DNA of 37,515 bases from Bradymonadia bacterium (GCA_046290225.1 JBKAGE010000015.1:1-37515), one strand, 5' to 3'; shown: positions 1,189 to 31,822, counted from the stretch's first letter. Made by a program: numbers and translations. The notes: generated by a model not told the origin, from the letters alone.

Positions 1189-1296
1189 ACGGCGTTCGAC
1201 CGCCCCATTGCTTGATCCTGAGCAGTGGTGATGCTATCGGATACCGCCCTACGGCGCGGCGAACGCGCCCAAATTGACTCTCAAGGAGGTCGTTTC

Positions 1297-2520
1297 ATGT
1301 TCTCGATGACCTGGCGCATGACGCTGACCGGCCTTCTGGCGGCTCAGCTGGTCGCTTGTGGCGGTAAGAAAGACGGCAACGACGGCAAGAAGCCTGCTGC
1401 CGACAACACCAAGAAGGCGGCCACCGAGGCCCCCAAGACCGACCCGAAGGCCGACCCCAAGGCAGATCCCAAGGGGACAGCAAAGGCTGATCCGAAGGCC
1501 GACCCCAAAGCGGACCCCACGGCGAGTGGCGATAAGGCCCCCGCCGTCAAGGCTCTCACTGGCCCCATCGCCAAGGTGAACGGTGTCACGCTCGAGAGTG
1601 ACGAGTTCAACCGCAAGTACGAGAAGATGACCAAGGCCTTCACCACGCGGAACAAAGAGATTCCGCCGAACCTGGCCAAGCGCTACCAGGAGTCGATCCT
1701 GAAGCAGCTCGTGGAGAAAGAGCTTCTCAAGCAGAAGATCAAGTCCGAGAGCATCGCCATCTCCGACGAGGAGATCGCCACCGAGTTCGAGAAGTACAAG
1801 AAGATGTTCCGCACCGAGGAGAACTTCCAGCGGTACCTCAAGAGCTCGCAGATCAGCGAAAACCAGATCAAAGACAACGTGCGTCACAACCAGTCGGTGA
1901 CCAAGCTGCTCGAGAAGGTGGAGGACGTGAACGTCTCCCCCGACGAGGCGCAGAAGTACTACGAGGAGCACAAGGACCGCTACGCCGTGAAGGAGCAGGT
2001 CCGCGCCAGCCACATTCTGCTGAAGGTGGCCAAGAACGCCGACGAGGCTGCGGTGACCGAAGCCAAGAAGAAGGCCGACAGCATCTACAAAGAGGCGGCC
2101 AAGAAGGACGCTGACTTCGCCGCTCTGGCCAAGCAGCACTCCCAGGGCCCCACTGGCCCCCGCGGTGGCGATCTGAGCTTCTTCCCCAAGGGCCGCATGG
2201 TGCCCGAGTTCGAGAAGGTGGCCTTCGAGATGAAGGTCGGGGAGATCTCCAAGCCTGTGAAGACCCAGTTCGGCTGGCACATCATCAAGGTGACCGACAA
2301 GAAGGAAGCCCGTCAGCGCCCCTTCGACGAGGTCAAGGAGCCCATCGAGAAGAACATCAAGGCCCGCAAGACCCGCAAGGCGAAGCAGACCCTGCTGGCC
2401 AACCTGCACAAAGAGGCCAAGATCGAGGTCCTCGTCGATGGCATCAACCTGCCGGCCCCCAAGGCCAACGGTGCCACGCCTCCGAAGCTGGCCCCCAAGG
2501 CTGTCCCCGGCAACAAGTAA
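1297..2520 (+). CDS. PpiC/parvulin-type peptidyl-prolyl isomerase lipoprotein (PrsA/SurA-like foldase)
   Basis: RBS AAGGAGGT at 1283-1290 before ATG 1297. Lipobox LVAC, SurA-like N domain (IAKVNG...ILKQLVEKELL), and parvulin motifs VRASHIL, FAALAKQHS, GGDLSFF, MVPEFE, PVKTQFGWHIIKV. Confidence 0.93.
   Translation: MFSMTWRMTLTGLLAAQLVACGGKKDGNDGKKPAADNTKKAATEAPKTDPKADPKADPKGTAKADPKADPKADPTASGDKAPAVKALTGPIAKVNGVTLESDEFNRKYEKMTKAFTTRNKEIPPNLAKRYQESILKQLVEKELLKQKIKSESIAISDEEIATEFEKYKKMFRTEENFQRYLKSSQISENQIKDNVRHNQSVTKLLEKVEDVNVSPDEAQKYYEEHKDRYAVKEQVRASHILLKVAKNADEAAVTEAKKKADSIYKEAAKKDADFAALAKQHSQGPTGPRGGDLSFFPKGRMVPEFEKVAFEMKVGEISKPVKTQFGWHIIKVTDKKEARQRPFDEVKEPIEKNIKARKTRKAKQTLLANLHKEAKIEVLVDGINLPAPKANGATPPKLAPKAVPGNK
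1441..1518 (+). repeat. 12-bp coding tandem repeat (DPKA)n in the lipoprotein tether
   Basis: GACCCGAAGGCC / GACCCCAAGGCA / GATCCCAAGGGG / ACAGCAAAGGCT / GATCCGAAGGCC / GACCCCAAAGCG / GACCCC. Confidence 0.9.
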
Positions 2521-2619
2521 TCCCCTCCTCTTCTCTCCTGCCTCAAATCCCTTTCTCTTAAGCTTCAGGCCACTTCGGACGATGTCCTGGCGAGCAGCCG
2601 GACTCGATGAGGTGGCACT

Positions 2620-3384
2620 GTGGATATCTCAACACTCCTGGGACTGGTCGGCGGCTTCGGCCTGATCATCGTCTCCATTCTCATGGGCGGCGAGCTGGGC
2701 CTGTTCATCAACATCCCCTCTCTGACCGTCGTCATCGGAGGGACGATCGCGGCCCTGCTGGTCAGGTTCTCGATCCCCGAAACCATCCGTACCCTCGGCC
2801 TCATCAAGATGTCGCTCTTCTTCTCTCTGAAGACGAAGGAAGAGGTGATCCAACAGTTCGGTGAGCTCGCTCAGATCGCCCGTAAGGAGGGCTTGCTGGC
2901 TCTGGAGCGGATCGAACTGGATGATCCCTATATGGCCAAGGGCATCGCGTTCTGCGTCGATGGGGCGGAGACACGCCAGATCGAGGCGATCCTCACGAAA
3001 GATATTCAGTACATGAAGGCCCGCCACGACGCCGGACAGGAGATCCTGCGGGCGGTGAACACGTCGGCGCCGGCCTTCGGCATGATCGGCACCCTGATCG
3101 GCCTGGTGCAGATGCTGGCGAACATGGAAGACCCGGCGAGCATCGGCCCCGCCATGGCTGTGGCCATCTTGACCACGCTCTATGGCGCGGTGGTGTCAAA
3201 CCTCATCGCCACGCCCATCGCTGACAAGCTGATGTATCGCAGCGCCGAAGAGGTGGATCTGAAGATGCTGATGATGGAGGGGATCCTGGGCCTGAAGAAA
3301 GGGGAGAACCCCCGCATGCTCGAGGAGCTCCTCCACACCTATGTACCACCGGCGACCCGAGAGGGCCTGCGCTCAGCGGCCTGA
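2620..3384 (+). CDS. motA: MotA/PomA-family stator A subunit
   Basis: GTG start after GAGGTGG. MDISTLLGL N-terminus, ARKEGLLALE charged motif, APAFGMIGTLIGLVQML, IGPAMAVAILTTLYGA, GENPRML. Confidence 0.95.
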   Translation: MDISTLLGLVGGFGLIIVSILMGGELGLFINIPSLTVVIGGTIAALLVRFSIPETIRTLGLIKMSLFFSLKTKEEVIQQFGELAQIARKEGLLALERIELDDPYMAKGIAFCVDGAETRQIEAILTKDIQYMKARHDAGQEILRAVNTSAPAFGMIGTLIGLVQMLANMEDPASIGPAMAVAILTTLYGAVVSNLIATPIADKLMYRSAEEVDLKMLMMEGILGLKKGENPRMLEELLHTYVPPATREGLRSAA

Positions 3385-3402
3385 TGTCTCTGGGGTAATG
3401 TC

Positions 3403-4182
3403 ATGGAAGACGAAGCAGATCAGGGTGATGGCGGAGGCGGGCTCGAGGAGGAGCTCGTATGTCCTGAAGGTGCCCCTGAGTGGCTGGTGACGTTCGGCGA
3501 CATGATGTCGCTGCTGCTCACCTTCTTCATCCTGTTGTTGTCCTTCGCCAACATGGACGCCCTGAAGTTCAAGCAGATCTCGGGCTCGATCAAGCAAGCC
3601 CTCGGCGTGGAGCAAAAAGAGCAGGTCATCATCGTACCGAAGGCCCAGAAGGTCATCCCGATCAAGTTCAGCATTGATTACAACGCGATGAACATGTCCC
3701 AGAAGCTCAAGCGCGAGATGGATCCGCTCTCGAACTCGAAGAAGAAGGGCAAGGTCAACATCCAGGTCTACGAGACCTATCGAGGGGTGACGGTCCTGAT
3801 GCCGGCCCACGACATCTTCGAGGCAGGTACGGACACGCTGAAGCCTGTTGCCTTGCCCATACTGGCCTATCTGGCTCAGGAGGCGGCGAACTCACCCAAC
3901 GAGCTGGTGGTGGAGGTCCGCGCACCAGAGGACGCCCCTCGGGCGGTCCGCTTTTCGGATCACTGGGAGCTGACGACCGCGCAGGCGGTGGTGGCGGCCC
4001 GATACATTCGCAGCTCGGCGGAGACACAGGGGTATACGCTCGGCGCGGCGAAGGTGCACGCTGTGGGCCGAGGCTCGGCGCCATTGCTCGAGCGCAGGGA
4101 GGATGGCTCAATCCCGGCCCTGGAAGGGCCCGCGGTGAACTTCCTGTTCTTGTCGAATCCCCTCAACCCTGGCAGGCGGTGA
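3403..4182 (+). CDS. motB: MotB/PomB-family stator B subunit, copy 1 (degenerate OmpA-like domain)
   Basis: CPEGAPEWLVTFGDMMSLLLTFFILLLSF TM segment with the conserved Asp. The C-terminal OmpA-like fold is recognisable (IFEAGTDTL, HWELTTAQA, AVGRG) but lacks HTD and NRRVE. Confidence 0.88.
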   Translation: MEDEADQGDGGGGLEEELVCPEGAPEWLVTFGDMMSLLLTFFILLLSFANMDALKFKQISGSIKQALGVEQKEQVIIVPKAQKVIPIKFSIDYNAMNMSQKLKREMDPLSNSKKKGKVNIQVYETYRGVTVLMPAHDIFEAGTDTLKPVALPILAYLAQEAANSPNELVVEVRAPEDAPRAVRFSDHWELTTAQAVVAARYIRSSAETQGYTLGAAKVHAVGRGSAPLLERREDGSIPALEGPAVNFLFLSNPLNPGRR

Positions 4183-4193
4183 GGGGGTGATCG

Positions 4194-4988
4194 ATGGATG
4201 ACGAGCTGCTCGACATCGAAGAGGAAGAGTCGGCGGAGATGCCCGCGGACGAGAAGTGTCCGGAGGGTACCCCTGAGTGGCTGGTGACGTTCGGCGACAT
4301 GATGTCGCTGCTGCTCACCTTCTTCATCTTGTTGTTGTCCTTCGCCCAGATGGAGAAGGTGAAGTACCAGATGGTCTCCGGGGCGATGATGCAGGCCTTC
4401 GGGGTGCAGGAGAAGGTGAAGGCCTTCAACCGCCCTCAGGGACACAACGTGGTGGCCACTGAGTTCTGGTCCACGACGTCGAAGAGCATGATGAACGGGA
4501 TGCGTACGGCGGCGAAGAAGCACGCCCGTCGCAGCGCGCCAGGTACAGTGGACGTGGCGGTCTTCGAGGACTACCGCGGCATCGTCCTGCAAATCGGCGA
4601 AGAGGCGATGTTCGAGAAGGGGCGCTCGCAGCTGAGACCTGCGGTGTGGCCCTTTCTCGACGAGGTGCTCGAGATCGCGCTGAAGAATGCGTCCTTCATT
4701 CGGGTGGAAGCGCACACTGACAGCTCTCCTATCCGGACAGCAGAGTTTCCGAGCAATGATCACCTCTCCGGCTCTCGGGCGGTGTCGGTGGTCCGCTACT
4801 TCCAAGGGCGGGCACAGACGCTCGCCGCGGGCCTGCCTGGAGATGCGCGCCTGGATCCTCATCGTATGGAGGCTGTGGCCATGGGGGCGACACACCCCAA
4901 GGTGCCCAACACCTTCCGTGCTGGCCGACGACGCAATCGCCGTGTAGAGATCGTCTTCGAGGAGCTGCCGCAAGATTACCGGCGGTGA
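4194..4988 (+). CDS. motB: MotB/PomB-family stator B subunit, copy 2 (intact OmpA-like domain)
   Basis: Same TM motif. OmpA-like domain with MFEKGRSQL, VEAHTD, NDHLSGSRAVSV and RNRRVEIVF. Confidence 0.93.
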   Translation: MDDELLDIEEEESAEMPADEKCPEGTPEWLVTFGDMMSLLLTFFILLLSFAQMEKVKYQMVSGAMMQAFGVQEKVKAFNRPQGHNVVATEFWSTTSKSMMNGMRTAAKKHARRSAPGTVDVAVFEDYRGIVLQIGEEAMFEKGRSQLRPAVWPFLDEVLEIALKNASFIRVEAHTDSSPIRTAEFPSNDHLSGSRAVSVVRYFQGRAQTLAAGLPGDARLDPHRMEAVAMGATHPKVPNTFRAGRRRNRRVEIVFEELPQDYRR

Positions 4989-5012: not shown

Positions 5013-5822
5013 ATGGCTGGAGAGTTCGGGGGTAAGCAGTCACGTGAGGGGCTGACGGGCTGGGTGATTGGCCTGTCGCTGATCGTGCTCATGATCCTCG
5101 CTGCGTGGTGGTGGCGACAGAGTGATCCTCGACGGCCCTCGGTGCCCCTCGCGGAGATGTCGCTTCAACAGTTCGAAGGCTGGCGTGCGGGCCGGTTGCC
5201 TCCTTCCAAGGCCGACATCGAACGCCTGCAGGATCTCCCGGCGTGGGTCAAGGGCCAGCGCATTGAGCTGGAGCTCCCTGGCGACTACCTCGAGATCAAC
5301 GGCCCCATGCCCTCGATGCCCATGGCGGTGGATGGGGTGCTGACGACCAAAGTGGGCAAACACCCCACGGCGGTGGTCATCCTCGGTGATGGTCAGAACA
5401 TCGCGTTGTTGTCGGTCTTCGACTCGACGGCGCAGGTGCTGCTGGGATCTGATCGGCGCCGCCTGATGGACGAATGGAGCCACTTCGGCTTCAACACCGG
5501 CGAGCTTCGGGTCTACATCTGGAAACGCCGGGACAACATCTTCTCGGTGGTGACGACGGAGGCCCAGAGCACGACGAGCCTCACAGATGATCCGATCGCC
5601 TGGATCGGAGAGCTGTTCGAGGACGAGAGGCCTTTGAGCCGCCCACTCTGGCTCCCTCCGCCCACGACTGGCCGCCCCAACCGCCTCGGTGAAGGCTTCG
5701 AGCCAGGTGTGGTGTTACCGCCCCAGGGAGTGGCAGATCCATCGGCCGGTCAACTGACCCCGGCTGGCGGCAAGCCCATCATCGTTCAGCCAGACCTGCC
5801 CCCATCAACCTTCGAGGAATGA
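5013..5822 (+). CDS. hypothetical single-pass membrane protein with Pro-rich tail
   Basis: GGGAG RBS, one N-terminal TM helix (WVIGLSLIVLMILAAWWW), a beta-rich central domain and a low-complexity C-terminus. Starts 24 bp after motB2. Confidence 0.75.
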   Translation: MAGEFGGKQSREGLTGWVIGLSLIVLMILAAWWWRQSDPRRPSVPLAEMSLQQFEGWRAGRLPPSKADIERLQDLPAWVKGQRIELELPGDYLEINGPMPSMPMAVDGVLTTKVGKHPTAVVILGDGQNIALLSVFDSTAQVLLGSDRRRLMDEWSHFGFNTGELRVYIWKRRDNIFSVVTTEAQSTTSLTDDPIAWIGELFEDERPLSRPLWLPPPTTGRPNRLGEGFEPGVVLPPQGVADPSAGQLTPAGGKPIIVQPDLPPSTFEE

Positions 5823-5902: not shown

Positions 5903-7441
5903 ATGGCCAGAAGAGTTGATGTTCGGCACTGGTGCTGGCTGCTGGTGTTCGCTCAACTCGCCGGCTGCGCTTCGGCGAATCAGGCGGAAGAGGATCCTGA
6001 AGAGCTTCAATGCCGCGAAGGCTACACCGTCGGTGGTGACGGGGAGTGCTCTATCCCCTCGCTCGCCCCTGCGGAGGATGTCGAGACCCCCGACATGCCC
6101 TTCGAGGAGCCCACGATCATTGAGGATCAGGCCTCCTGGTTTATGAACCAGGAGGGGGACGGGGAGTACGAGGTCTACGTTGGCGAGTCCCTCGACATCC
6201 GCGTCCGCGTCACCAATGGCTACGGTGAGCCCGCCCCTGACCGCCAGGTGAACTTCGAGCTGCTCCCCGTAGACAGCAGCGATGTCTTCGGCTCTGCCCT
6301 GGCGGTGCGCCGCGCGACGACGAACGAGTTCGGTGTCGCCGAGGCCACAGTGGTGGCCGGTGATCGGCCGGCCTACTTCAAGGTGGAGATGACCTCCCCC
6401 GACACTGAGGGGATCCCCTACTTCATCAGCGTGATTCAGCGACCCGAAGGCGATCCGCTCCAGCCTCCGGGTGAAGGCGGGATGATCCCCGGTGGGGGCA
6501 TCAGCGGCGCATGTCTGGGCACCAAGGGCGTGTACTCGGTGACCAACCTCTACGAGCCCGCCGCTGCGGTGGATCAGGGCGTCTTCGAGGTTCTCGACGA
6601 CATCTACGAGGCGGTGAGCAACCCCGGCCGCTTTGCCGGCCGCTACATCGAAGATCGCATCGACGGCTTCTGGGGCTCGGTGATCCGGGCGGCCATCGAG
6701 CCGGTGATCAACTTCGTGGTGGATTACGTGCTCAATAACTACGCCCCGGACTGGGTGCGCTGGACACTCCTGGTGGTCGAAGACGTGACGGCGATCCTCA
6801 CCAACCTCGAGATTCAGGGCACGCTGGAGCTGGGCGATCCGGAGCCGATGGAGTGTCGGCTCCGAGGGGCCCACACCTGGGACACCCTGGTCTTCATCTG
6901 GCGCGCTGGCTGCCCTGCTGGGAACGACATGTGCGGCCGCTACCCGGTGGAGATGAACCGCATCGGTGTCGACCTGTCCCGCAGCGAGTTCGATGCCCGT
7001 CTGACTCGGACCATCGGTCCGGTGGCGGACATGGAGATCGACGCCCACCCCATGAACCTGAACCTGGCGGTGGCCATCATCTGGTTCGTGGAGAACTATG
7101 TGCTGCCTCAGCGCCTGAACGTGAACAGCTTCGGCGAGCTGCTGGGGCTGATCATCCCCTGTGATGCGGTGGGTGACGTGGCCCGCGATTACCTCAGTGG
7201 GGTGCCCTTCGTGGGCTTCGCTGTGGGGCCCTTCGTGGAGCGTGCTTGTGAGCGTGGTCTGGAGGCGGCAGGCAACTACCTGACCCGTCAGCTGACCGAT
7301 AGCCTCAACGTGAGCGTCTTCGAGATCTCGGGGACGGCGAAGCTGCGAGACACGACGGGGAACCAGTTCGCCGACAAGATCTCCGAGGGTCGCTGGGAAG
7401 ACGGCCTGCCCGGTGACTTCACGGGTGAGCGCCGCCAGTAG
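5903..7441 (+). CDS. hypothetical lipoprotein with an Ig-like (Big_1-like) domain
   Basis: RBS GGAGGT and lipobox LAGC. Ig-like segment IRVRVTNGYGEPAPDRQVNF...TTNEFGVAEATV, then a Cys-containing C-terminal domain. Codon usage is strongly coding-like. Confidence 0.85.
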   Translation: MARRVDVRHWCWLLVFAQLAGCASANQAEEDPEELQCREGYTVGGDGECSIPSLAPAEDVETPDMPFEEPTIIEDQASWFMNQEGDGEYEVYVGESLDIRVRVTNGYGEPAPDRQVNFELLPVDSSDVFGSALAVRRATTNEFGVAEATVVAGDRPAYFKVEMTSPDTEGIPYFISVIQRPEGDPLQPPGEGGMIPGGGISGACLGTKGVYSVTNLYEPAAAVDQGVFEVLDDIYEAVSNPGRFAGRYIEDRIDGFWGSVIRAAIEPVINFVVDYVLNNYAPDWVRWTLLVVEDVTAILTNLEIQGTLELGDPEPMECRLRGAHTWDTLVFIWRAGCPAGNDMCGRYPVEMNRIGVDLSRSEFDARLTRTIGPVADMEIDAHPMNLNLAVAIIWFVENYVLPQRLNVNSFGELLGLIIPCDAVGDVARDYLSGVPFVGFAVGPFVERACERGLEAAGNYLTRQLTDSLNVSVFEISGTAKLRDTTGNQFADKISEGRWEDGLPGDFTGERRQ

Positions 7442-22806: not shown

Positions 22807-25110
22807 TCAGCGTACAACTAGATCTTCGAGCCAGGGCAACTCGACAGCACCTTCCTGGTAGTACCTCTCAGCCCAGTCCCCGTCGGTCAGCCGCTCGAAG
22901 TTCTCGGTGACGAAGTTGTGCGTCGAGTACACCGGGCCAGCATATGCGCGGGGGCCGGTGCAGCTCTCTACCGTGACCACCATCAGGCGTGGGAAACCCG
23001 TAGCCATGTGCATCACCTTGCCCACCAAAGCACCCATCTCGTCGGTGGGCTGCGTGTGGATGTCTACAGTGAGCAGATCGCTTGTATAGGGGTCTCCATT
23101 GTCGAGCACCAGGAGCAGCTTGCCGTACCAACCGCCGGTGACATAGCCGACATAATCATCAGGTCGGATGTCCACGGCCTGCTCCAGCCACATGACCTGC
23201 GCGTCGGTGAAGGGCTCGCCGGTGACCTGCTGCTCCGCGAGCACCTTCAGCTCGCTGGCCACCATGTGCATGTGTTGCCACCAGTCTCGGTAGAACGCCC
23301 CCCCTTCCGGATCGAGCGCCGCGAGGGGGCCTTCGCTGACGGCCAGCCCCATCTCGGCAAGTTGTATGAGGACCCCATAGAACTCAGGCACGGGATCAAC
23401 ATAACCGTCAGGGTAGTCGCAGCCCTCACCACCGGTGTAGCTGGGCTTGGCGTACAGCAAATTGTCGTGGCGCAGCTCGCTCCAGCTCCCGAGCTGTGCG
23501 TTGAGCAGACGACGGCCGAAGGCTTCGGTGCCCATCACCGCCGGTCGACCATGCCCTGCGGGATCAGCAGCGATCTCCGGATCAGGAGACAGTGCGCGTA
23601 GCGCGTTGATCCATCCTGAGTAGAGGTCCTCGGTCCACGCGTCTTTGGGGCGATCGTCCATCAGCGCCCGCATGGCTGCCAGATGACCCGGATAGTCTCC
23701 ATATGCCCGCAGCTCGTCTTCGAGCAGAGAAGCTGCCTGACTGTTGCCCAGTGCTGCGAAGGCCACATCGAGCGGATCAGGCATCATGCGAGGCGCTTGG
23801 AGCGAGTCCCAGACCACGTTGCTGAGCACCTCGCTGTCAACGATGTAGCGTTGACCGAAGAGGGTGAAGCTCACGGGGAGTGCGGTCCGCTTGTTCTCGC
23901 CGAGCCCTCCTCGGAAGAAGTCACCGCGGATGCGCTGCACATTGAAAGCTGCCGTAGTGAGCGTCTCGATGAGATCAGCATCTTCAGCGTCGCTGAGAGA
24001 CTGAGCTTCTCCAGGTAGGGCATCCCGCAGCGCCTCGAGCGTGTCCACGGTGACGAAATCTTGAGGTCCGACGAAGCTGCGCAGCACGGCCTCGATGCGG
24101 GCCCAATCCGCCCGCGCCGACGCGTCGATGAGCTTGTCGATCACCAGCGCTGCGGCGATGGCCCGACGATGCACCTGCCAGTCGCCGCTCTGATCGAGCT
24201 CGATGAATCGCAGATCGATGCGCCCGAGCCACATCATCGCTCGAAAATACTGCTCCAGCTCCTGGATTGAGGCGTAGTGACCACGAGGCTTGAACTGGCT
24301 CATGTCGGTCCGGCGCTGAGCGCCAAAAAGAGTGATCCCCTTGATGCCCTCAGCAGCCTCTGCTGCCTGAATCAACGCCTCTACTGTGTCAGCATCCCCA
24401 CCGGCCTCCGGCGGGATGAATCGGCCATTGAGCAGGCTGCGGGCCACGGCAAAATAGACGTCGAGGTCAGCGATGACCTCGGGACCCCAGTCAGCGCCTT
24501 CTCCCTCAGCAAGCCGCCCGTGCAGATGACTCAGCCAGCGATTCATCGCAGGCTTCAGGGTACGGACCTCCACACTCTTCAAAAGGGTGCCGTAGGCTCG
24601 ATGAAGCGCGTGGAGCAGACTGTCAGCGCTGATGTAGACCGGTAAATCAAAGTTGTAGATGCGCTCGTAGAGGCCAATGAAAGAGGCCTCGCTCTGCCGC
24701 GCGCTGATGACGAAGCCGCGGGCTTCCAACACGGCGAGCTCGTCATCATTCAGCGCATATGGGCTGGCCTGGATGATCTCGAGGTTCTCGGCGTCGAGGG
24801 GGTCGTATCCAAGATCGTCTGCGAAAGGCACCTTGAAGCGCTCGAGCACCCCATCCGCGTCGAGCGCCAGGCTGTCATCGACGAGATTGTTCAGCCGTTG
24901 CCGCTCGGCCTGTGCCTCCGCTGGCTCTGGCAGAGGCGCGTTGGGTAAGACCTCTTCAAAGGCTGGGGGTGCATCATTCACAGCCCCATCAGGCTGAGCG
25001 GGCATCTCACCGGAGCCTCCCCCACCTGATGGGCTGACTGATGGGCTGACACCATCGTCGGCGTCACACGCGGCGAGACACAGTGCAGTGAGAATCAGGA
25101 TCGAACGCAT
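22807..25110 (-). CDS. DUF3160-like lipoprotein
   Basis: Start ATG 25110 (MRSILILTALCLAAC lipobox). Motifs recalled for DUF3160: PVYISADSLLHALH, DMSQFKPRGHY, YFRAMMWLGR, FTLFGQRY, LGSWSELRHDNLLYAK, GYVDP. Confidence 0.88.
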   Translation of the reverse strand: MRSILILTALCLAACDADDGVSPSVSPSGGGGSGEMPAQPDGAVNDAPPAFEEVLPNAPLPEPAEAQAERQRLNNLVDDSLALDADGVLERFKVPFADDLGYDPLDAENLEIIQASPYALNDDELAVLEARGFVISARQSEASFIGLYERIYNFDLPVYISADSLLHALHRAYGTLLKSVEVRTLKPAMNRWLSHLHGRLAEGEGADWGPEVIADLDVYFAVARSLLNGRFIPPEAGGDADTVEALIQAAEAAEGIKGITLFGAQRRTDMSQFKPRGHYASIQELEQYFRAMMWLGRIDLRFIELDQSGDWQVHRRAIAAALVIDKLIDASARADWARIEAVLRSFVGPQDFVTVDTLEALRDALPGEAQSLSDAEDADLIETLTTAAFNVQRIRGDFFRGGLGENKRTALPVSFTLFGQRYIVDSEVLSNVVWDSLQAPRMMPDPLDVAFAALGNSQAASLLEDELRAYGDYPGHLAAMRALMDDRPKDAWTEDLYSGWINALRALSPDPEIAADPAGHGRPAVMGTEAFGRRLLNAQLGSWSELRHDNLLYAKPSYTGGEGCDYPDGYVDPVPEFYGVLIQLAEMGLAVSEGPLAALDPEGGAFYRDWWQHMHMVASELKVLAEQQVTGEPFTDAQVMWLEQAVDIRPDDYVGYVTGGWYGKLLLVLDNGDPYTSDLLTVDIHTQPTDEMGALVGKVMHMATGFPRLMVVTVESCTGPRAYAGPVYSTHNFVTENFERLTDGDWAERYYQEGAVELPWLEDLVVR

Positions 25111-25199
25111 ATGGGCCCCCAGTCTTGTGTGCTCTACCCGAAGGGAAAGTGGGGGCGATCTTACATGCGTTGCATATTTAGAGGTCCTCACAGAGCAGC

Positions 25200-26903
25200 T
25201 CAGCGCCGCGTCATGCGCATATCTGCCCTCGGAGCGCGGCGATGTGAAGATCTAAGCGAGATGTTCACCGTATGAGCCCCGGAGTCGTCGACACACCTCA
25301 CGAAGCCCTTCATCGCGTCGGTGCCAGCCATGCACAGCGCCCCTTCGTCGTTGACCGCGGCGTCCAGCACAGAGGCGCGTTGACCCAGCCTGTGCGTGTG
25401 TACTCGACCCTTCCGCTCGCCGTCTCGGCTCACTCGTGCCCAGCTCATGCCCACCACCCTCCACGTGTTCTCGGCGACATCGAGTCGGCGCTGATGCCCC
25501 ACCAGCCACGCCTCGCGGCCGGCAGTGGCCAGCCGTTTGAAGACCACACCCTGATGGCTGTTCGCGCCACCGCCCGCGTAGTGTTCGATGGCCTGGCGCC
25601 GCCCAGCGGCAGAATATCGAACGAAGGTGCCGCCTTTGATCGTCGGGCCCACCCCGGCGACGAGCAACGCGTCCCCCTGGCGCTTGATCGACTGGTAGGC
25701 GTTCCGGTCTTCACTCAGTCGGGTCCAGCGGTGCTTGCCCGAGGTGCTCAGGGCCATGACGAACCCTGAGGGCGCGCCGCGATTGCGCTTGCCGTGCAGG
25801 GCGCCATACGTCTCACCGACGATGACCGGCCTGCCGCGGGCATCCAGGGCAATGTCGTAGCCCTCGTCTGCGGGCAGTTTGTCGCCTCGCCAGACGTGGG
25901 TGCCGTAGGTGCGATGCCACTTCACCTTGCCGTCGGGGGCCAGCTTCATGGCCAGGATGTCGTAGGCATCGTGGGGCAACTTGCGACGCAGCTCAGAAGG
26001 GAGATCTCGAGTGGAGCGACCGGTGATGTAGATCATGCCCTTGGCATCAACGGCGACACCGTGTGCTGCTTCTGTGTGGGGGCTGCCCACTTGAGTGTGC
26101 ATGGTCGGGCGTCCGTCGAGGCTGTAGGTGCGCACGAAGACGTCTCGCTCACCTTTGCTCGACGAGCGGGGCATCGCTCCATCGGTGTAGCCCACCACCA
26201 CGACCCCCTTGGGACCCAAGGCCAGGTCGAGGGCTGCGTCTGCTTGGGGTGTGCCGAACTGTTTGCCCCAGAGCAGCTCTCCTCGGGCGTCGTAGCGGGC
26301 GATGAAGGCATCCTCTTTGCCTTTGCTCCGGGTGCCTTCCAGTGCGCCGATGACTTCGCCGGCGACGAAGTATCCCCCTGCTCCGTCAGACTCCACGGCA
26401 TGCACGAGCACCCGGGCCTTGGGCCTCGTGTAGAATGACCATTCGAAGGGCCGCCTCATCTGCACGCCGTTTCGCCCGCGGACGTGGCTCGGGTTCAGGC
26501 TCACCTTCACCTGTCGCTTCTCGTCAATGGGCCGGGCGAGTCGAATGGTGAACGTCTGGTCATCGCGGGTGCTGATCTTGCCCCCGGGGCAGCTTGAGAT
26601 CGATTTGCTCAGCTCCACCTGCACGGTGAAGGTCTGCTCTTCGAAGAACGACGGGTGACACACGACGTAACCGCTGTGATCGTTGATCTTCACCCGCCCT
26701 CTCTCGATGGGCTGGTCGAAGGTGACACGGATCGTGCGCACCGCGCCGTCTGCGGTGCCATCCGGGGTGACCTCGACGACACGAGGCGCACCACGTGCGC
26801 CCCGATCGGGCGGTGGATGACGCCGCGCTTCTGCTGCGGTGGTGCTCAGAATGAGGAGGGTGGAGAATGCGAGGCAGGTGCGTCGGGGGGAGCTCAAGGG
26901 CAT
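25200..26903 (-). CDS. secreted protein with Ig-like domain and SBBP-type beta-propeller repeats
   Basis: Signal peptide LAFSTLLILSTTAAEA. Big_5-like VVEVTPDG...IRVTFDQPI...FEWSFYT. Repeats DAFIARYDARGELLWGKQFGT, AHGVAVDAKGMIYITG, DILAMKLAPDGKVKWHRTYGT. Start is 26903 or 26960. Confidence 0.8.
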   Translation of the reverse strand: MPLSSPRRTCLAFSTLLILSTTAAEARRHPPPDRGARGAPRVVEVTPDGTADGAVRTIRVTFDQPIERGRVKINDHSGYVVCHPSFFEEQTFTVQVELSKSISSCPGGKISTRDDQTFTIRLARPIDEKRQVKVSLNPSHVRGRNGVQMRRPFEWSFYTRPKARVLVHAVESDGAGGYFVAGEVIGALEGTRSKGKEDAFIARYDARGELLWGKQFGTPQADAALDLALGPKGVVVVGYTDGAMPRSSSKGERDVFVRTYSLDGRPTMHTQVGSPHTEAAHGVAVDAKGMIYITGRSTRDLPSELRRKLPHDAYDILAMKLAPDGKVKWHRTYGTHVWRGDKLPADEGYDIALDARGRPVIVGETYGALHGKRNRGAPSGFVMALSTSGKHRWTRLSEDRNAYQSIKRQGDALLVAGVGPTIKGGTFVRYSAAGRRQAIEHYAGGGANSHQGVVFKRLATAGREAWLVGHQRRLDVAENTWRVVGMSWARVSRDGERKGRVHTHRLGQRASVLDAAVNDEGALCMAGTDAMKGFVRCVDDSGAHTVNISLRSSHRRAPRADMRMTRR

Positions 26904-26965
26904 CGAGTCGGGCCTTTCGTCGAAATCCGTAGACTCCCGACGCCGGCCCCTCCATGCCATTCATG

Positions 26966-29900
26966 TCACTTGCAGTCGAAGTACCCGTAGCAGGGATCGA
27001 TCTTCAGCTCTTTGCCCCCGCTGACCATGAAGTCCCCCATCATGTCGAAGAGGAACACCGCGATGTCGAAGAACTGCGAAGGATCACAATCGCAGGTCTC
27101 CCCTTCCGGACAAGCCGCCTCGCAGGCCCGTACGTGGTCGTCGATCATGGCTCCGGGGTTGTCGAAGCCGTGGGCGCCGCCCGGGTCGGTGTAGGGGAAG
27201 ATGGCTACGGAGTAGCCACCGAGCTTGTCTTTCTTGTCGAAGCCTGCCCTCAGCGGCGGATCGAGACGGGGCACGTCGCCGAAGGTGTCCATGCCGTTGG
27301 AGAAGTTCTCGATGTCGATGTGGACCGGCCTGCCGTCAGGGCCAGTGAAGCGGCCCAAGGTGTCCACGGCCTCTGCAGTGTAGGTGTTGATCACCTGCTG
27401 GTTCATCGGCACCCCATAGCGCTCGTCCACCTCGGTGAACGGAATGATGCCTGCGTTGCGGCCCGCACTCAGACCCGTGCTCGCCGGCACGTTCATGTCA
27501 CCCATGGTGGTGATGATCATGGCGTGGGTGCCCGTGGTCTGCCCAGTACCGGGGTAGGTCATGGGCTCTTCCGACATGAAGCGCAGGTAGGAGCCCGGAT
27601 CGCCGGGATCGAGGACCAGCTGGGCCAGGCCCAGGAACCGCCGGAACTCCGGATCGGAGCGGCGCAGCCCCAGACCCTCGGCGAGGGCCACCAGGGGGGA
27701 CCCGGCCTCGTACATCTTCGTCTGGAACTCCACAGCCTCTTCGAAGGTGTCCACCACCACCGAGGGCTGCACACCTTCTTTGATCTCGCACTCTTCGCTG
27801 CCGGTGACGAGCTGAGGGCCAGAGTAGAAGGTGATGCGGATCGGATCGCCGACGTCGGTGGCCACGTGGGCTCGGGTCTTGCCTTCGCCGTTGAGGTAGC
27901 CACAGCCCACCTCTTCAGTGCGCAGGTTCTCCACCTTCATCGTGTCCCAGGGCTTCACCCCGTCGACGACGGCGAGGGTGCGCGAGGCGTCGTCGTTGAG
28001 CTCGGGCACGATGGTCTCCACCTGGGTCATGCCCGTGGCGGCATCGTGGGTGGCGAGGAACAGCGGGCCCATGGCCCGCAGGATCACCGCCTCGCGCACG
28101 CCGCCCTGCTTGCTGCGTACGCCGACATCGCCGAGGCCGCCACCACCGGCGATGGGGATCGCCACTGACAGCTCGGGCTCGAGGCTGCCCATGAGCAACG
28201 CCATGATGCCGCCGAGGGAGCCACCGCTCATGCCGATCAGCGAATCCTTGCCGATGTCCACCACGCCGTCGCCGTCGAAGTCTCCGGCGAGCTCGTTCTC
28301 GCCGTCGCCGTCGATGTCGAAGTTGAAGCGCTTCGTGCCGTCCCAGCTGCGGACGATGCGGATGAGCTGCATGTAGTCGAGGCCGCACTGCCGCACCACG
28401 TCGCGGGTGTGGAACACGTAACCGGTCCAGAAGTCGGCGCCGGAGTCCTTCACCCCATCGCCGTTCTGATCCAGAGCCCGATCGGTGAACACCGCTTCGA
28501 ACAAAGCGGCCAGGCCGAAGTTCCCCAGGATACGGGTGGCGATGTCTTTGGTCTCCTGATCGACGTTGAGGCCGTGGGAGACGCAGTCGATGGCCAGAAC
28601 CGCCATGCCCTTCGAGGTGAGGTAGCCGCCGTAGCCCGCGATGTCATTGAAGCGGTTCGAAGTGTAGCCATGGCCCATGATCATCACGGGCACGTGCTTG
28701 CCCTCGGCCCGCAGCGACACGTCTTTCTTGGGCATCATCAACCAGAAGTGCACATCCTCTCGCCGAGTGGGGGCAGGCTTCCGGCTGAGATCCACAGGCC
28801 AGGCCTGATCGTCGAGGGGCAGGAAGTTCCCCTCCTCGTCGTACCGCTCGAAGAGCTGAGGCGACTCGAAGGTGCCCTCGACGAGGTAGTCACCGGTGAG
28901 CATCGTCTCCTCGAACTTCTGGAAACTCGGCGCCGTGGCATCCTGCTCCAGAATCGTGGTGGCGATGAGGCGGTACGCCGGGATGAAATCCTCGACGAAC
29001 ATGATGTAGGGGTTGGAGCGATCGCTGAAGTTGCTGTGATCGAGGTCGAGCGAAGGCATCAGCCCCTTCACCACCGGCGGGAACTCTTCACCGATGTGCT
29101 TCTGCACGCCGTGGCCGTAGAGGCCGTCACGGACCGCCTGCCAGTCAGACTCCATGGTCTGGGTGGTGAAGCTGAAGGCGAAGGCCACGTCGCTCAAGGC
29201 CAGGCCTTCGGGGAGTACCTCCTTGAGGGGCATCAGGTCCTGCGTCTGGCCATCGTGGTTGATGAAGGGGTACGGGGATCCCACGGGGTTGCCCTCGGCG
29301 TCCTTCAGCCGACGGGTCACCACCACGCCGTACTTCGTGCGCTCCTTCAAGGGCACCATGGGCCGCAAGATGAGGGTGTTCGTCTGACGCTCGTAGAAGG
29401 TCATGAGGGCGTCGGCGCGGCCGGCGAGATCATCCATGGCGGGGTTGGCGCCCGGGTACCAGTTGGGCTGGTCGAGCACGCCGTCGGCGTCGGTGTCCTC
29501 TGGGGGATCGAGCACGCCATTGCCGTTGAGATCCTCGCCATCGTCGAGGGTGCCGTTGCCGTTGAGATCTTCACCGTCGTCAAGCACACCATCGCCGTCG
29601 AGATCCTCGTTGATCTCTTCGAAGAAGATGTTGTTGCTGAAGCCTCGGGGATCGTTGCGCCAGTAGCCTGAGTAGTCCTCGAGCACCACGGGGTAGTTCC
29701 CGTTGCCCACGTCGAGGTGGTGCACCTTGCCGAACTCCGCAGAGTCCCGATCGATGTTCACCAGATAGACCACGTCGTTGCTGAGATCGTAGTCCGCGTC
29801 CCGGTGGCCTTCGAGGATCGACTCGATGCTCAAAGGCCCGGTGAAGGGGATCGTGATGGGCTGCAACACCCCCCACCCGTCGAGCTCGTCGATCTTGGTC

Positions 29901-30148
29901 CGGGTGCGGACCTCCATCTCGGTGGGGGCCACCATCGAGGCGTTGATGCGGCGCTTCGTGGGCGAGGTCTCGTCGTAGCGCGTGGCGATGTCGTTGGGCA
30001 GCGGGATCTCCGGCAGCGGGCGGGCTTCGAAGTCGAGCTTCACCACCGTCTGCGCCGTGGGGGCCGGTGCCAGGCCCTCGGGGGCATCGGAGAAGCAGCC
30101 GGAGATCGTCAGAACACCGGCGAGGCACATCATCGAGCGTGCGTTCAT
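26966..30148 (-). CDS. large alpha/beta-hydrolase (lipase/esterase-like) lipoprotein
   Basis: RBS GAGGAG before ATG ATG ATG (30154-30146) and lipobox ISGC. N-terminal PLPND...LDGWG resembles extracellular Pla-1/VolA-type lipases. HGY oxyanion motif, AIDCVSHG, nucleophile elbow GGSLGG, and candidate Asp (GDMNVP) and His (AHGF). Confidence 0.82.
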   Translation of the reverse strand: MNARSMMCLAGVLTISGCFSDAPEGLAPAPTAQTVVKLDFEARPLPEIPLPNDIATRYDETSPTKRRINASMVAPTEMEVRTRTKIDELDGWGVLQPITIPFTGPLSIESILEGHRDADYDLSNDVVYLVNIDRDSAEFGKVHHLDVGNGNYPVVLEDYSGYWRNDPRGFSNNIFFEEINEDLDGDGVLDDGEDLNGNGTLDDGEDLNGNGVLDPPEDTDADGVLDQPNWYPGANPAMDDLAGRADALMTFYERQTNTLILRPMVPLKERTKYGVVVTRRLKDAEGNPVGSPYPFINHDGQTQDLMPLKEVLPEGLALSDVAFAFSFTTQTMESDWQAVRDGLYGHGVQKHIGEEFPPVVKGLMPSLDLDHSNFSDRSNPYIMFVEDFIPAYRLIATTILEQDATAPSFQKFEETMLTGDYLVEGTFESPQLFERYDEEGNFLPLDDQAWPVDLSRKPAPTRREDVHFWLMMPKKDVSLRAEGKHVPVMIMGHGYTSNRFNDIAGYGGYLTSKGMAVLAIDCVSHGLNVDQETKDIATRILGNFGLAALFEAVFTDRALDQNGDGVKDSGADFWTGYVFHTRDVVRQCGLDYMQLIRIVRSWDGTKRFNFDIDGDGENELAGDFDGDGVVDIGKDSLIGMSGGSLGGIMALLMGSLEPELSVAIPIAGGGGLGDVGVRSKQGGVREAVILRAMGPLFLATHDAATGMTQVETIVPELNDDASRTLAVVDGVKPWDTMKVENLRTEEVGCGYLNGEGKTRAHVATDVGDPIRITFYSGPQLVTGSEECEIKEGVQPSVVVDTFEEAVEFQTKMYEAGSPLVALAEGLGLRRSDPEFRRFLGLAQLVLDPGDPGSYLRFMSEEPMTYPGTGQTTGTHAMIITTMGDMNVPASTGLSAGRNAGIIPFTEVDERYGVPMNQQVINTYTAEAVDTLGRFTGPDGRPVHIDIENFSNGMDTFGDVPRLDPPLRAGFDKKDKLGGYSVAIFPYTDPGGAHGFDNPGAMIDDHVRACEAACPEGETCDCDPSQFFDIAVFLFDMMGDFMVSGGKELKIDPCYGYFDCK
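29471..29608 (-). repeat. 4 x 36-bp coding repeat EDL(N/D)G(N/D)GxLDxx, putative Ca2+-binding DxDxDG loops
   Basis: EDLDGDGVLDDG-EDLNGNGTLDDG-EDLNGNGVLDPP-EDTDADGVLD. Confidence 0.88.
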
Positions 30149-30159
30149 CATCATTCTCC

Positions 30160-31713
30160 TCACAACCGGATCTGGCCGATGAAGCGGCCGCCCATCACAG
30201 GATCAGGGGTACCACCCGTGGCGTCGGTGAAGGCCGAGCCCGGGGCGAAGTAGCCCCCTTCGAGGCCGAACATCATCCGCGCGAAGCCGATGTTGGTCCG
30301 GTAGCGGATGCCCAGGTCGAACTCGGTGCCGAGGTACACCCCCGGCGTACCGCCCAGAGCAGTCTGAGGATCGCCACCGTTCAGGCGGGTATTGCGCGGA
30401 TCAGCAGCCTGCACCTCGGAGAAGGCCACCAGAGGGCCGCCGTAGAGTTCGATTTTGGCCACGCGCCACCAGAAGCGCGGGAACACCAGGGCGGTGTTCG
30501 ACACCGAGCCCCGAGTGGGGAAGCGATCGAGATCTTCGTTGGGCACACCGAGCAGATCAGGATCAGAAGCGCGGGTCACCGCCCGGGCCGTTGCCGCAGC
30601 GTTCATCTGCCGGAACAGGATCAGCCCCATCTCCAGGTTGGGATCGAGCTTCAGGGCGTTTTGCTGATCATCGTCGAAGTTCTGATCGCCAGTGGCGTAG
30701 AGCATGTCGGTGTTCACACCGAAGCTGCCCCAGCTCAGGTTCAGGCGCAGAAGGCCACCTGCCTGCCGCACGTCGTGGGTCTGCCGGTTGACGGTGGGGG
30801 CCCACTCGGTCTCACCGGTGATGTAGACCCCTTCAAATGCGGTGTCGATCTGCACGTCGTCGAGGCGGGTGCGGTAGCGCAGGAACACGTCGACGGCGGT
30901 GACGTCGGTCACCTGCTCGTCGATGGCGGTCTGCTCGCGGAAAGCCGCGTAGGCGCCCATCTCCAAGCGGGTGGGGTTGGGGCCCTTGCCGAACTGGTCG
31001 TCGTACTTCACCGCCACCACGAACTGGTTGGCTTCGTCATCGCCCACGAGGATGTCGTCGTCTTGCACCTCGTCGTAGGCGAAGAACACCTTCAGAGGCA
31101 GGATGTCGTCGGGCAGCCCCGTGCCCAGGGCGTAGCGCAGCACCCGATCCCCAGAGCGAGGATCACCAAAGTAGGCGCTGCCCGGGGTCCAGCCGTGGGC
31201 GCCGTCGTTGGACAGTAAACCCAGACCCCAGTGGCTGGTCTGGAATCCTGCGGTGACCCGTGCCCAGGGGGTGGTCAGCTCACCGTAGGCCTTTCTCAGC
31301 TCATCGTCGGGCTGCTGCTCGTCGTTCGGCAGCCCCGTGGCCTCGAGATCAGTCTCTCCGCCGCTGGCGACGCCGGTGTAGACATCGTGCTCGTAGACCG
31401 CCTTGAGCTTGAAGGCCTTGTGCAGGTTGAACCCCGCCTCGGCGCCCAAACGCAGCTGAGTGTTGATCGCCGCGTCCGGGTCATAGGTGTTGCCGTCCGG
31501 ATCCACCACGATCGCATCGAAGGCTTCATAGCGCCCCGTGGCCAGGCCATTCGCCATGATGTAGAAATCAGCGTTCCTGGCCTCGAGCGGGCTGCTGGCG
31601 CTGTCTTTGAGGCGATTCGCCTCATCGGGGGCTTGTGCGAAGCTCTGTCCGGACCACAACCCGACAACGAGGGGCGTGGCGAGCAGAGCAGATGTGCGTC
31701 GTGTGCGATGCAT
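30160..31713 (-). CDS. putative outer-membrane beta-barrel protein (alginate-export-like pattern)
   Basis: Start ATG 31713 with a signal peptide ending SFA-Q. ELRKAYGELTTPWARVTAG-Q-SHWGLGLLSNDG, many alternating beta-strands, GTEFDLGIRY, GYFAPGSAF, terminal strand GRFIGQIRL. Confidence 0.8.
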   Translation of the reverse strand: MHRTRRTSALLATPLVVGLWSGQSFAQAPDEANRLKDSASSPLEARNADFYIMANGLATGRYEAFDAIVVDPDGNTYDPDAAINTQLRLGAEAGFNLHKAFKLKAVYEHDVYTGVASGGETDLEATGLPNDEQQPDDELRKAYGELTTPWARVTAGFQTSHWGLGLLSNDGAHGWTPGSAYFGDPRSGDRVLRYALGTGLPDDILPLKVFFAYDEVQDDDILVGDDEANQFVVAVKYDDQFGKGPNPTRLEMGAYAAFREQTAIDEQVTDVTAVDVFLRYRTRLDDVQIDTAFEGVYITGETEWAPTVNRQTHDVRQAGGLLRLNLSWGSFGVNTDMLYATGDQNFDDDQQNALKLDPNLEMGLILFRQMNAAATARAVTRASDPDLLGVPNEDLDRFPTRGSVSNTALVFPRFWWRVAKIELYGGPLVAFSEVQAADPRNTRLNGGDPQTALGGTPGVYLGTEFDLGIRYRTNIGFARMMFGLEGGYFAPGSAFTDATGGTPDPVMGGRFIGQIRL

Positions 31714-31822
31714 CTGCGAACTCTCGGGGGCGTGAATTTGGGGGGCCATATAAGCCCGAAGCCCACGAATGTTGCAACGCTCTCTCTGAAAGCGCGTCAC
31801 CTCGCTGTCACGCAGACTCTGG

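Follow-up and report, generated by a model that had tools for sequence, protein, structure and literature searches.

One motA with two divergent motB genes in a Bradymonadia bacterium: a probable flagellar stator operon with a predicted mixed B dimer

The window, that is, the whole stretch of DNA analyzed (37,515 nucleotides; Bradymonadia bacterium, GCA_046290225.1, JBKAGE010000015.1:1-37515), corresponds to the entire contig C15 of an 8.58-Mb genome that is assembled into 83 contigs and is 99.4% complete. It contains three stator genes in a row, which are listed here together with their surroundings.

1225..2520, + strand: PPIase, a PrsA/SurA-type foldase gene with Rotamase and SurA_N matches, 5′ of motA
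2559..2585, + strand: putative sigma-28-like promoter site, TAAG-N15-GACGATGT, 61 bp 5′ of motA
2620..3384, + strand: motA, a PomA-like stator A subunit of 254 aa (Pfam MotA_ExbB, 6.7e-25)
3403..4182, + strand: motB1, 259 aa (MotB_plug, 2.5e-17; without an OmpA match), with ion-binding Asp33
3472..3546, + strand: membrane-helix tract of motB1, differing little from the motB2 tract
4194..4988, + strand: motB2, 264 aa (MotB_plug, 1.4e-16; OmpA, 3.2e-10), with ion-binding Asp35
4269..4343, + strand: membrane-helix tract of motB2, near-identical to that of motB1
5013..5822, + strand: membrane protein with one predicted helix and no match in Pfam or NCBIfam
5903..7441: ORF with only a weak Ig-like Pfam match

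All three stator ORFs are intact and are separated by spacers of 18 bp (motA to motB1) and 11 bp (motB1 to motB2). The ORF coordinates, the spacers, and the Pfam matches bear out the tight linkage and the flanking genes described in a first-pass annotation of this DNA. The two B proteins share 36% identity across 189 residues. The foldase gene, the true start of which likely lies downstream of 1225, precedes motA in 16 of 19 loci that were cut with 1.5-kb flanks; it is probably transcribed separately from motA, with the sigma-28-like site lying between the two. On the 3′ side, the membrane protein at 5013 was rejected as a component of the system, as relatives occur in just 6 of 31 genomes of the order, the genome of the window included, and only here does the gene adjoin the stator genes; in the other five genomes it is found about 5 kb 3′ of them. 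The ORF at 5903 has paralogues on contigs C43 and C36. Elsewhere in the window, four large minus-strand ORFs form a run at 22807-31800 (one DUF3160, two Ig-like, and one without a family). At four loci of relatives (L125, L127, L128, and L129), motB2 is directly followed by about four conserved, clustered genes in the opposite orientation. The window has no such cluster at this position; judged from its sequences, the cluster may comprise microcompartment shell and aldehyde dehydrogenase genes. None of the 31 ORFs of the window scanned by Pfam is a fli, flg, or che gene, as had been stated before. Because the window is a whole contig, however, this absence is uninformative about the genome, the flagellar genes of which sit on contig C75.

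The site at 2559..2585 was called against the sigma-28 consensus, using a pattern that was widened and chosen post hoc, once the motA site was known, and that has 67 matches genome-wide. The second box of this site also precedes the flgM and fliS genes of the same genome, and a flagellin gene is preceded by a near match. Similar sites are located 5′ of motA in G003, G007, and G008, the site being clear in few relatives only. A sigma-70 promoter scan returned 0 sites.

The MotA protein aligns with Vibrio PomA without gaps (E 1.3e-65). The accessible text of PMC10374538 names R88, E96, D114, and R232 of PomA as rotor-contact residues and T158, T185, T186, G154, and A182 as residues of the Na+ site. 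All nine are invariant among 19 of 19 relatives, and position 89, a Lys in the FliG-contact set of PomA, is either Lys or Arg among them. The sodium-type signature of PomAB and MotPS (T158/T185/T186) is therefore present in the window MotA, and the coupling ion of this stator is likely Na+.

A full flagellar gene set is found in the same genome. Both FliG and FlhA have matches on C75. NCBIfam was run on 49 proteins, of which C75 encodes 39; although some matches fall under the curated cut-off, it recovered FlgB, C, D, E, F, G, A, H, I, J, M, K, and L, together with FliE, F, G, H, I, J, M, N, O, P, Q, R, S, W, D, and A, and FlhA, FlhB, FlhF, CsrA, and flagellin, with rod, hook, ring, and cap proteins among them. 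FlgN and FlaG were identified by Pfam, FliL is also present, and there are 6 CheW matches. Flagellin_N has 8 matches, one of which is FlgL, leaving seven flagellin-type genes on three contigs; at C78:534039-540715, three such genes alternate with two ORFs without a known family that resemble each other and are each about 320 aa long. The flagellar clusters of this genome contain no mot or other stator genes. Genome-wide, MotB_plug has 3 matches, the two Bs of the window and one protein on C14, and the window motA is the only close PomA/MotA-type gene. Rotor and filament genes thus reside in the same cell as the operon, with no other stator to serve them.

The distribution of motA follows that of flagellar genes. 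At E <1e-40, exactly one motA is found per genome in 21 of the 31 genomes of the order. The order motA-motB1-motB2 is kept at 20 of 20 loci read (20 of the 21, G267 being left out), which span two families, and motB1 is intact in all of them. FliG accompanies the three genes in 19 of these 20 genomes and FlhA in the 20th, and 8 of the 10 genomes lacking a close motA had no FliG match; as the genomes of the order are kin, these co-occurrences are not independent samples. The remaining two, G018 (87% complete) and G266 (75% complete), have FliG and no match to motA.

The first-pass annotation had raised the idea of a non-flagellar ion motor and had proposed searching the genome for fliG, fliM, fliF, and flhA, all of which were found. 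That the trio powers some other envelope machine is in some agreement with its position away from the flagellar clusters and beside a foldase gene, and with the two incomplete genomes that have FliG without motA. It is contradicted by the full flagellar set with this motA as the only PomA-like one, by the lack of another stator in the flagellar clusters, by the invariant rotor-contact residues, by the co-occurrence with FliG or FlhA in 20 of 20 genomes, by the sigma-28-like site 5′ of motA, and by the presence of a separate aglRQS-like cluster for gliding. A non-flagellar role is very improbable and was rejected; the operon almost certainly serves the flagellum. Its job is an ordinary flagellar one, and its build is unusual.

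Two further motor loci were observed in this genome. At C46:38776-50679 (L132), an aglRQS-like cluster comprises one TolQ/ExbB-type gene and two small ExbD-like genes with gltG- and gltE-like neighbours; judged from its genes, this cell may be equipped for gliding as well as for swimming. At C14:29230-41424 (L007), a divergent motA-motB pair encodes a MotB with both plug and OmpA matches and a MotA that is 26% identical to that of the window, the match stopping at residue 204 and leaving E96 unmatched. This pair is surrounded by about eight genes without a Pfam family and one TPR protein. An adjoining 605-aa gene occurs in 9 of the 31 genomes of the order at 55-61% identity and adjoins a motA match in seven other genomes, including G009, G014, and G022, in which FliG was not found. 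The C14 pair, and not the window operon, is a candidate for a non-flagellar MotAB motor of this genome.

Both B proteins have one membrane helix, the ion-binding Asp (19 of 19 sequences each), and a plug region. The periplasmic domains differ. The HTD and NRRV motifs, the residues of which bind the wall peptide, are absent from all 19 B1 sequences; of the 19 B2 sequences, 15 carry HTD or FTD and 16 carry NRRVE. In the window, the wall-binding motif of B2 is intact (H174-T175-D176, R195, and N248-R249-R250). Mutation of this motif abolishes motility, according to the available text of PMC9093738. In a profile search of 1.84 billion proteins, the best 14 of the 150 matches listed lack HTD and NRRV, and HTD is present in 120 of those 150. 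A complementary pattern is seen for a Trp that follows an SN motif: it is conserved in 17 of 19 B1 and 67 of 81 other MotBs and is found in 0 of 19 B2, 14 of which have Asp at this position (189). Based on these alignments, B1 and B2 appear to have undergone complementary losses, of the wall motif in B1 and of the Trp at the predicted dimer face in B2. This split is not clean, as neither B has the wall motif in G002, G017, and G024. In these three members of genus g3 (loci L029, L031, and L030, respectively), motA and FliG are intact, and the helices of B1 and B2 have diverged to 10-12 of 25 identical residues.

The loss of the wall motif and a long branch could indicate that motB1 is a functionless, decaying duplicate. 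This explanation is hardly credible. The gene is intact at 20 of 20 loci in two families, and the periplasmic domain of B1 has dN/dS values of 0.18, 0.22, and 0.30 in three of six pairs, the other three being saturated; judged by these substitution rates, B1 is under purifying selection. The fold is kept as well, with a predicted pLDDT >90 in the core and Foldseek matches at 1.6e-9 to the periplasmic domains of MotS, PomB, and MotB, and B1 has conserved motifs of its own. PomB is the best solved-structure match of both B1 and B2. An ExbD match of B1 falls below the cut-off, and both Bs are of the MotB type. Decay of motB1 was rejected on the predicted fold and the purifying selection.

The membrane helices are nearly the same. 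The tracts at 3472..3546 and 4269..4343 are equal at 73 of 75 bases, and 20 of 21 synonymous codons are identical where 10.5 are expected (P 3.7e-6). This excess suggests that gene conversion took place recently in this genome. Across the order, the 25-residue helix segments of the two paralogues are identical at 24-25 of 25 positions in 13 of 19 genomes and at 10-19 of 25 in six. In those 13 genomes, a subset picked on helix identity, the segments agree at 99% within a genome and at 94% between genomes. Some lineage-specific changes are shared by both copies: V to L in the genome of the window, V to I in G007 (absent from its congener G019), and, in G004 and G006, V to M accompanied by M to L. 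An excess of synonymous identity at P <0.05 is observed in only 6 of 19 genomes.

Two distinct, conserved B genes per motA are present at 20 of 20 loci, where a homodimeric stator would have a single B gene. The first-pass annotation had called for a survey of this gene plan across genomes, and tandem sets were also found elsewhere. An alignment scan of named genomes identified 3 tandem A-B-B loci among the best 80 of 544 loci, two of them in Myxococcota and one in Latescibacterota; two further flagged loci were excluded, their Bs lying on opposite strands, and a single-protein scan of named genomes gave no match. In the Latescibacterota locus (L071:3240-5647), the three genes lie between flgE and fliO/fliP, the helix starts match, and both Bs have the OmpA motif. 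In G241, which belongs to another family of the phylum, the set is followed by fliL-fliM (L124:3515-6138) and the helices match; OmpA matches the first B only, one wall domain being degenerate. This was the one tandem pair among the matches listed in a survey of 251 genomes of the phylum. A quick tree of 121 periplasmic domains, with SH-aLRT support only and with L044, L045, and the Aquifex sequences left out, recovers a B1 clade (99), a B2 clade (93), a group of B1, B2, and one single MotB (90), and, separate from these, the Latescibacterota pair (97); the G241 rows are long and of uncertain placement. The motB duplication is likely older than the split of the two families of the order, and tandem Bs likely have more than one origin.

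In a competitive structure prediction, the periplasmic domains of B1 and B2, two copies each, were modelled jointly, and B1:B2 pairs were scored against 3 controls. Judged from the contacts listed, the model built two B1:B2 pairs that use the same faces on both copies, with a score of 0.72 versus 0.00 for the best control. In a calibration that is rough for this type of job, 116 of 157 solved complexes attain this mark, as do 2 of 215 mismatched pairs. In the mixed-pair runs, at least 43% of contacts agree and the partner pLDDT is at least 77. Under the same scoring, 10 of 12 colicin pairs, which are close cousins, pass as well, and the pass at 0.72 may be due to likeness to solved MotB homodimers. 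Among the predicted contacts are those of B1 188 with B2 197 and 227, of B1 200 with B2 189, and of B1 223 with B2 226. Of 19 genomes, 14 combine Arg at B1 223 with Glu at B2 226, which is replaced by Ser in the remaining five. The earlier suggestion that the system may assemble as A5:B1:B2 gains from the conserved and selected motB1, the complementary losses, the concerted helices, and this mixed-pair model, which stop short of a demonstration. Of the combination that was named as speaking against it, a complete flagellar system with an unconserved or decaying motB1, only the complete flagellum was found.

On balance, the operon probably encodes a Na+-driven MotA5:B1:B2 stator in which a mixed B dimer is the main working unit and which has one wall anchor. 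In the proposed mechanism, FliA would transcribe motA, motB1, and motB2 from the sigma-28-like site. Five MotA subunits would encircle one B1 and one B2 helix, and the two Asp residues would alternately take Na+ from the T158/T185/T186 site. Such alternating use needs two equivalent helices, and selection together with gene conversion would therefore keep them identical. A review describes the motor as stepping between symmetrically equivalent states (PMC9389320, in the part available), from which we infer a need for equal helices. The periplasmic domains would pair through the usual MotB dimer face, made asymmetric by contacts of B1 W188 with B2 V197 and A227, of B1 R200 with B2 D189, and of B1 R223 with B2 E226. 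B2 alone would likely grip the peptidoglycan. In the least supported step, the freed surface of B1 would dock on a component of the motor, for example FliL or a basal-body ring, and set the facing of the unit. R88, E96, D114, and R232 of MotA would drive FliG.

Several observations weigh against a mixed dimer. With near-identical helices, B1:B1 and B2:B2 would be accommodated by the MotA ring equally well, the helices share only 10-19 of 25 residues in six of 19 genomes, D189 and R201 of B2 could pair within a homodimer, and the Latescibacterota pair, with the OmpA motif in both Bs, indicates that tandem Bs need not divide labour. Among the alternatives, A5:B2:B2 could be the working stator, with B1 an optional modulator that forms weakly anchored, fast-exchanging units as B1:B2 or B1:B1 for torque tuning or as a brake. 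B2 does resemble a normal MotB in its Asp and wall motif, B1 evolves faster (stem 1.27 versus 0.53, and a higher dN/dS in each scored pair), and identical helices permit any pairing. B2 lacks the usual Trp at the predicted dimer face, however, B1 is present at 20 of 20 loci with a spacing of 11-18 bp that suggests joint expression, and the model picked mixed pairs. An optional B1 is unlikely, if still worth serious attention. It is more doubtful again that one MotA serves two homodimeric stators, A5:B2:B2 on the wall and A5:B1:B1 on a protein ring, that are swapped according to load or condition. Each B has the full helix, plug region, and folded periplasmic domain that this improbable arrangement would require, and an anchoring of Vibrio PomB on the T ring is suggested in the accessible text of PMC9093738; the identical helices speak against different ion use, and both the complementary interface residues and the competitive model favor mixed pairs.

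If the mixed-dimer reading holds, this operon would offer an experimental handle. The solved stators that were matched have B homodimers, in which one B chain cannot be altered without the other. A natural mixed dimer would make it possible to ask whether one wall anchor suffices, whether both Asp sites must fire alternately, and whether the unit always faces the rotor in one way. In Borrelia, the two MotB copies are reported in situ to be unequally placed, one of them contacting a collar protein (bioRxiv 10.64898/2026.10.14.759253, in the text available), and the present system may have fixed this inequality in its genes. The literature searched, mostly without subscription journals, contained no proposal of a MotA5:B1:B2 stator.

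Known systems share parts of this arrangement. The Myxococcus gliding motor AglRQS likewise has one A-type and two B-type subunits (PMC11761067 and PMC9389320, both in part), and an AglQ:AglS heterodimer in AglR5:Q:S is a prediction in the accessible text of PMC11761067. In contrast to the window genes, AglRQS belongs to the TolQR family and has neither an OmpA-like domain nor a FliG partner, and the window Bs are not of the ExbD/TolR type that marks AglRQS, TolQR, and ExbBD, which is without an OmpA-like domain and linked to transducers of the TonB/TolA/GltG type. The likeness to AglRQS is an analogy only, because a separate aglRQS-like cluster is encoded on C46. Vibrio PomA5PomB2 (8BRD/8BRI; PMC10374538, in part) is similar in its ungapped MotA alignment, Na+ site, and FliG-contact residues. 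In PomA5PomB2 and other MotA5MotB2 stators, the B dimer consists of two copies of one protein, each with the wall motif, whereas here the wall motif and the dimer-face Trp are split between two genes. The closest resemblance in gene plan is to Aquifex aeolicus, with a motA-motB1-motB2 operon whose B proteins are 97% identical in the N-terminal and helix region and 23% identical in the periplasmic region, as given in the available text of PMC4525482 and PMC4987623. The corresponding values of the window pair are 24 of 25 helix residues and 31 of 131 periplasmic residues, such that the Aquifex-type trait of tandem Bs with a near-identical N-terminal helix and divergent periplasmic domains is found here. 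Both systems have one motA with tandem motBs, lie apart from most flagellar genes, and are of the Na+ type; they differ in phylum and in the position of the intact B, which is first in Aquifex and second here. In Aquifex, GHTD is present in MotB1 and lost from MotB2, according to a visual reading of the corrupted Fig. S2B text in PMC4525482. The accessible text of that study describes that native pairs of MotA with either B did not restore motility to E. coli, that chimeras with the E. coli periplasmic region restored it using Na+, and that the failed complementation was attributed by the authors to a poor match to the E. coli wall; Table S1, in the version available, lists no three-gene plasmid. 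In the part of PMC4987623 available, Aquifex MotB1 did not copurify with MotA and MotB2 alone was insoluble. A mixed B dimer is neither proposed nor tested in the available portions of these two papers, and an obligate mixed dimer would explain the same Aquifex results. The operon plan has thus already been published for Aquifex, and the mixed dimer is a model-based prediction made here. More tentatively, at a shade below even chances, the design may be an obligate A5:B1:B2 flagellar stator, with helices kept alike by conversion, one wall anchor, and a B1 that docks on the motor and orients the unit; it would have arisen separately in Aquifex and G241 and would explain the single-B failures of Aquifex.
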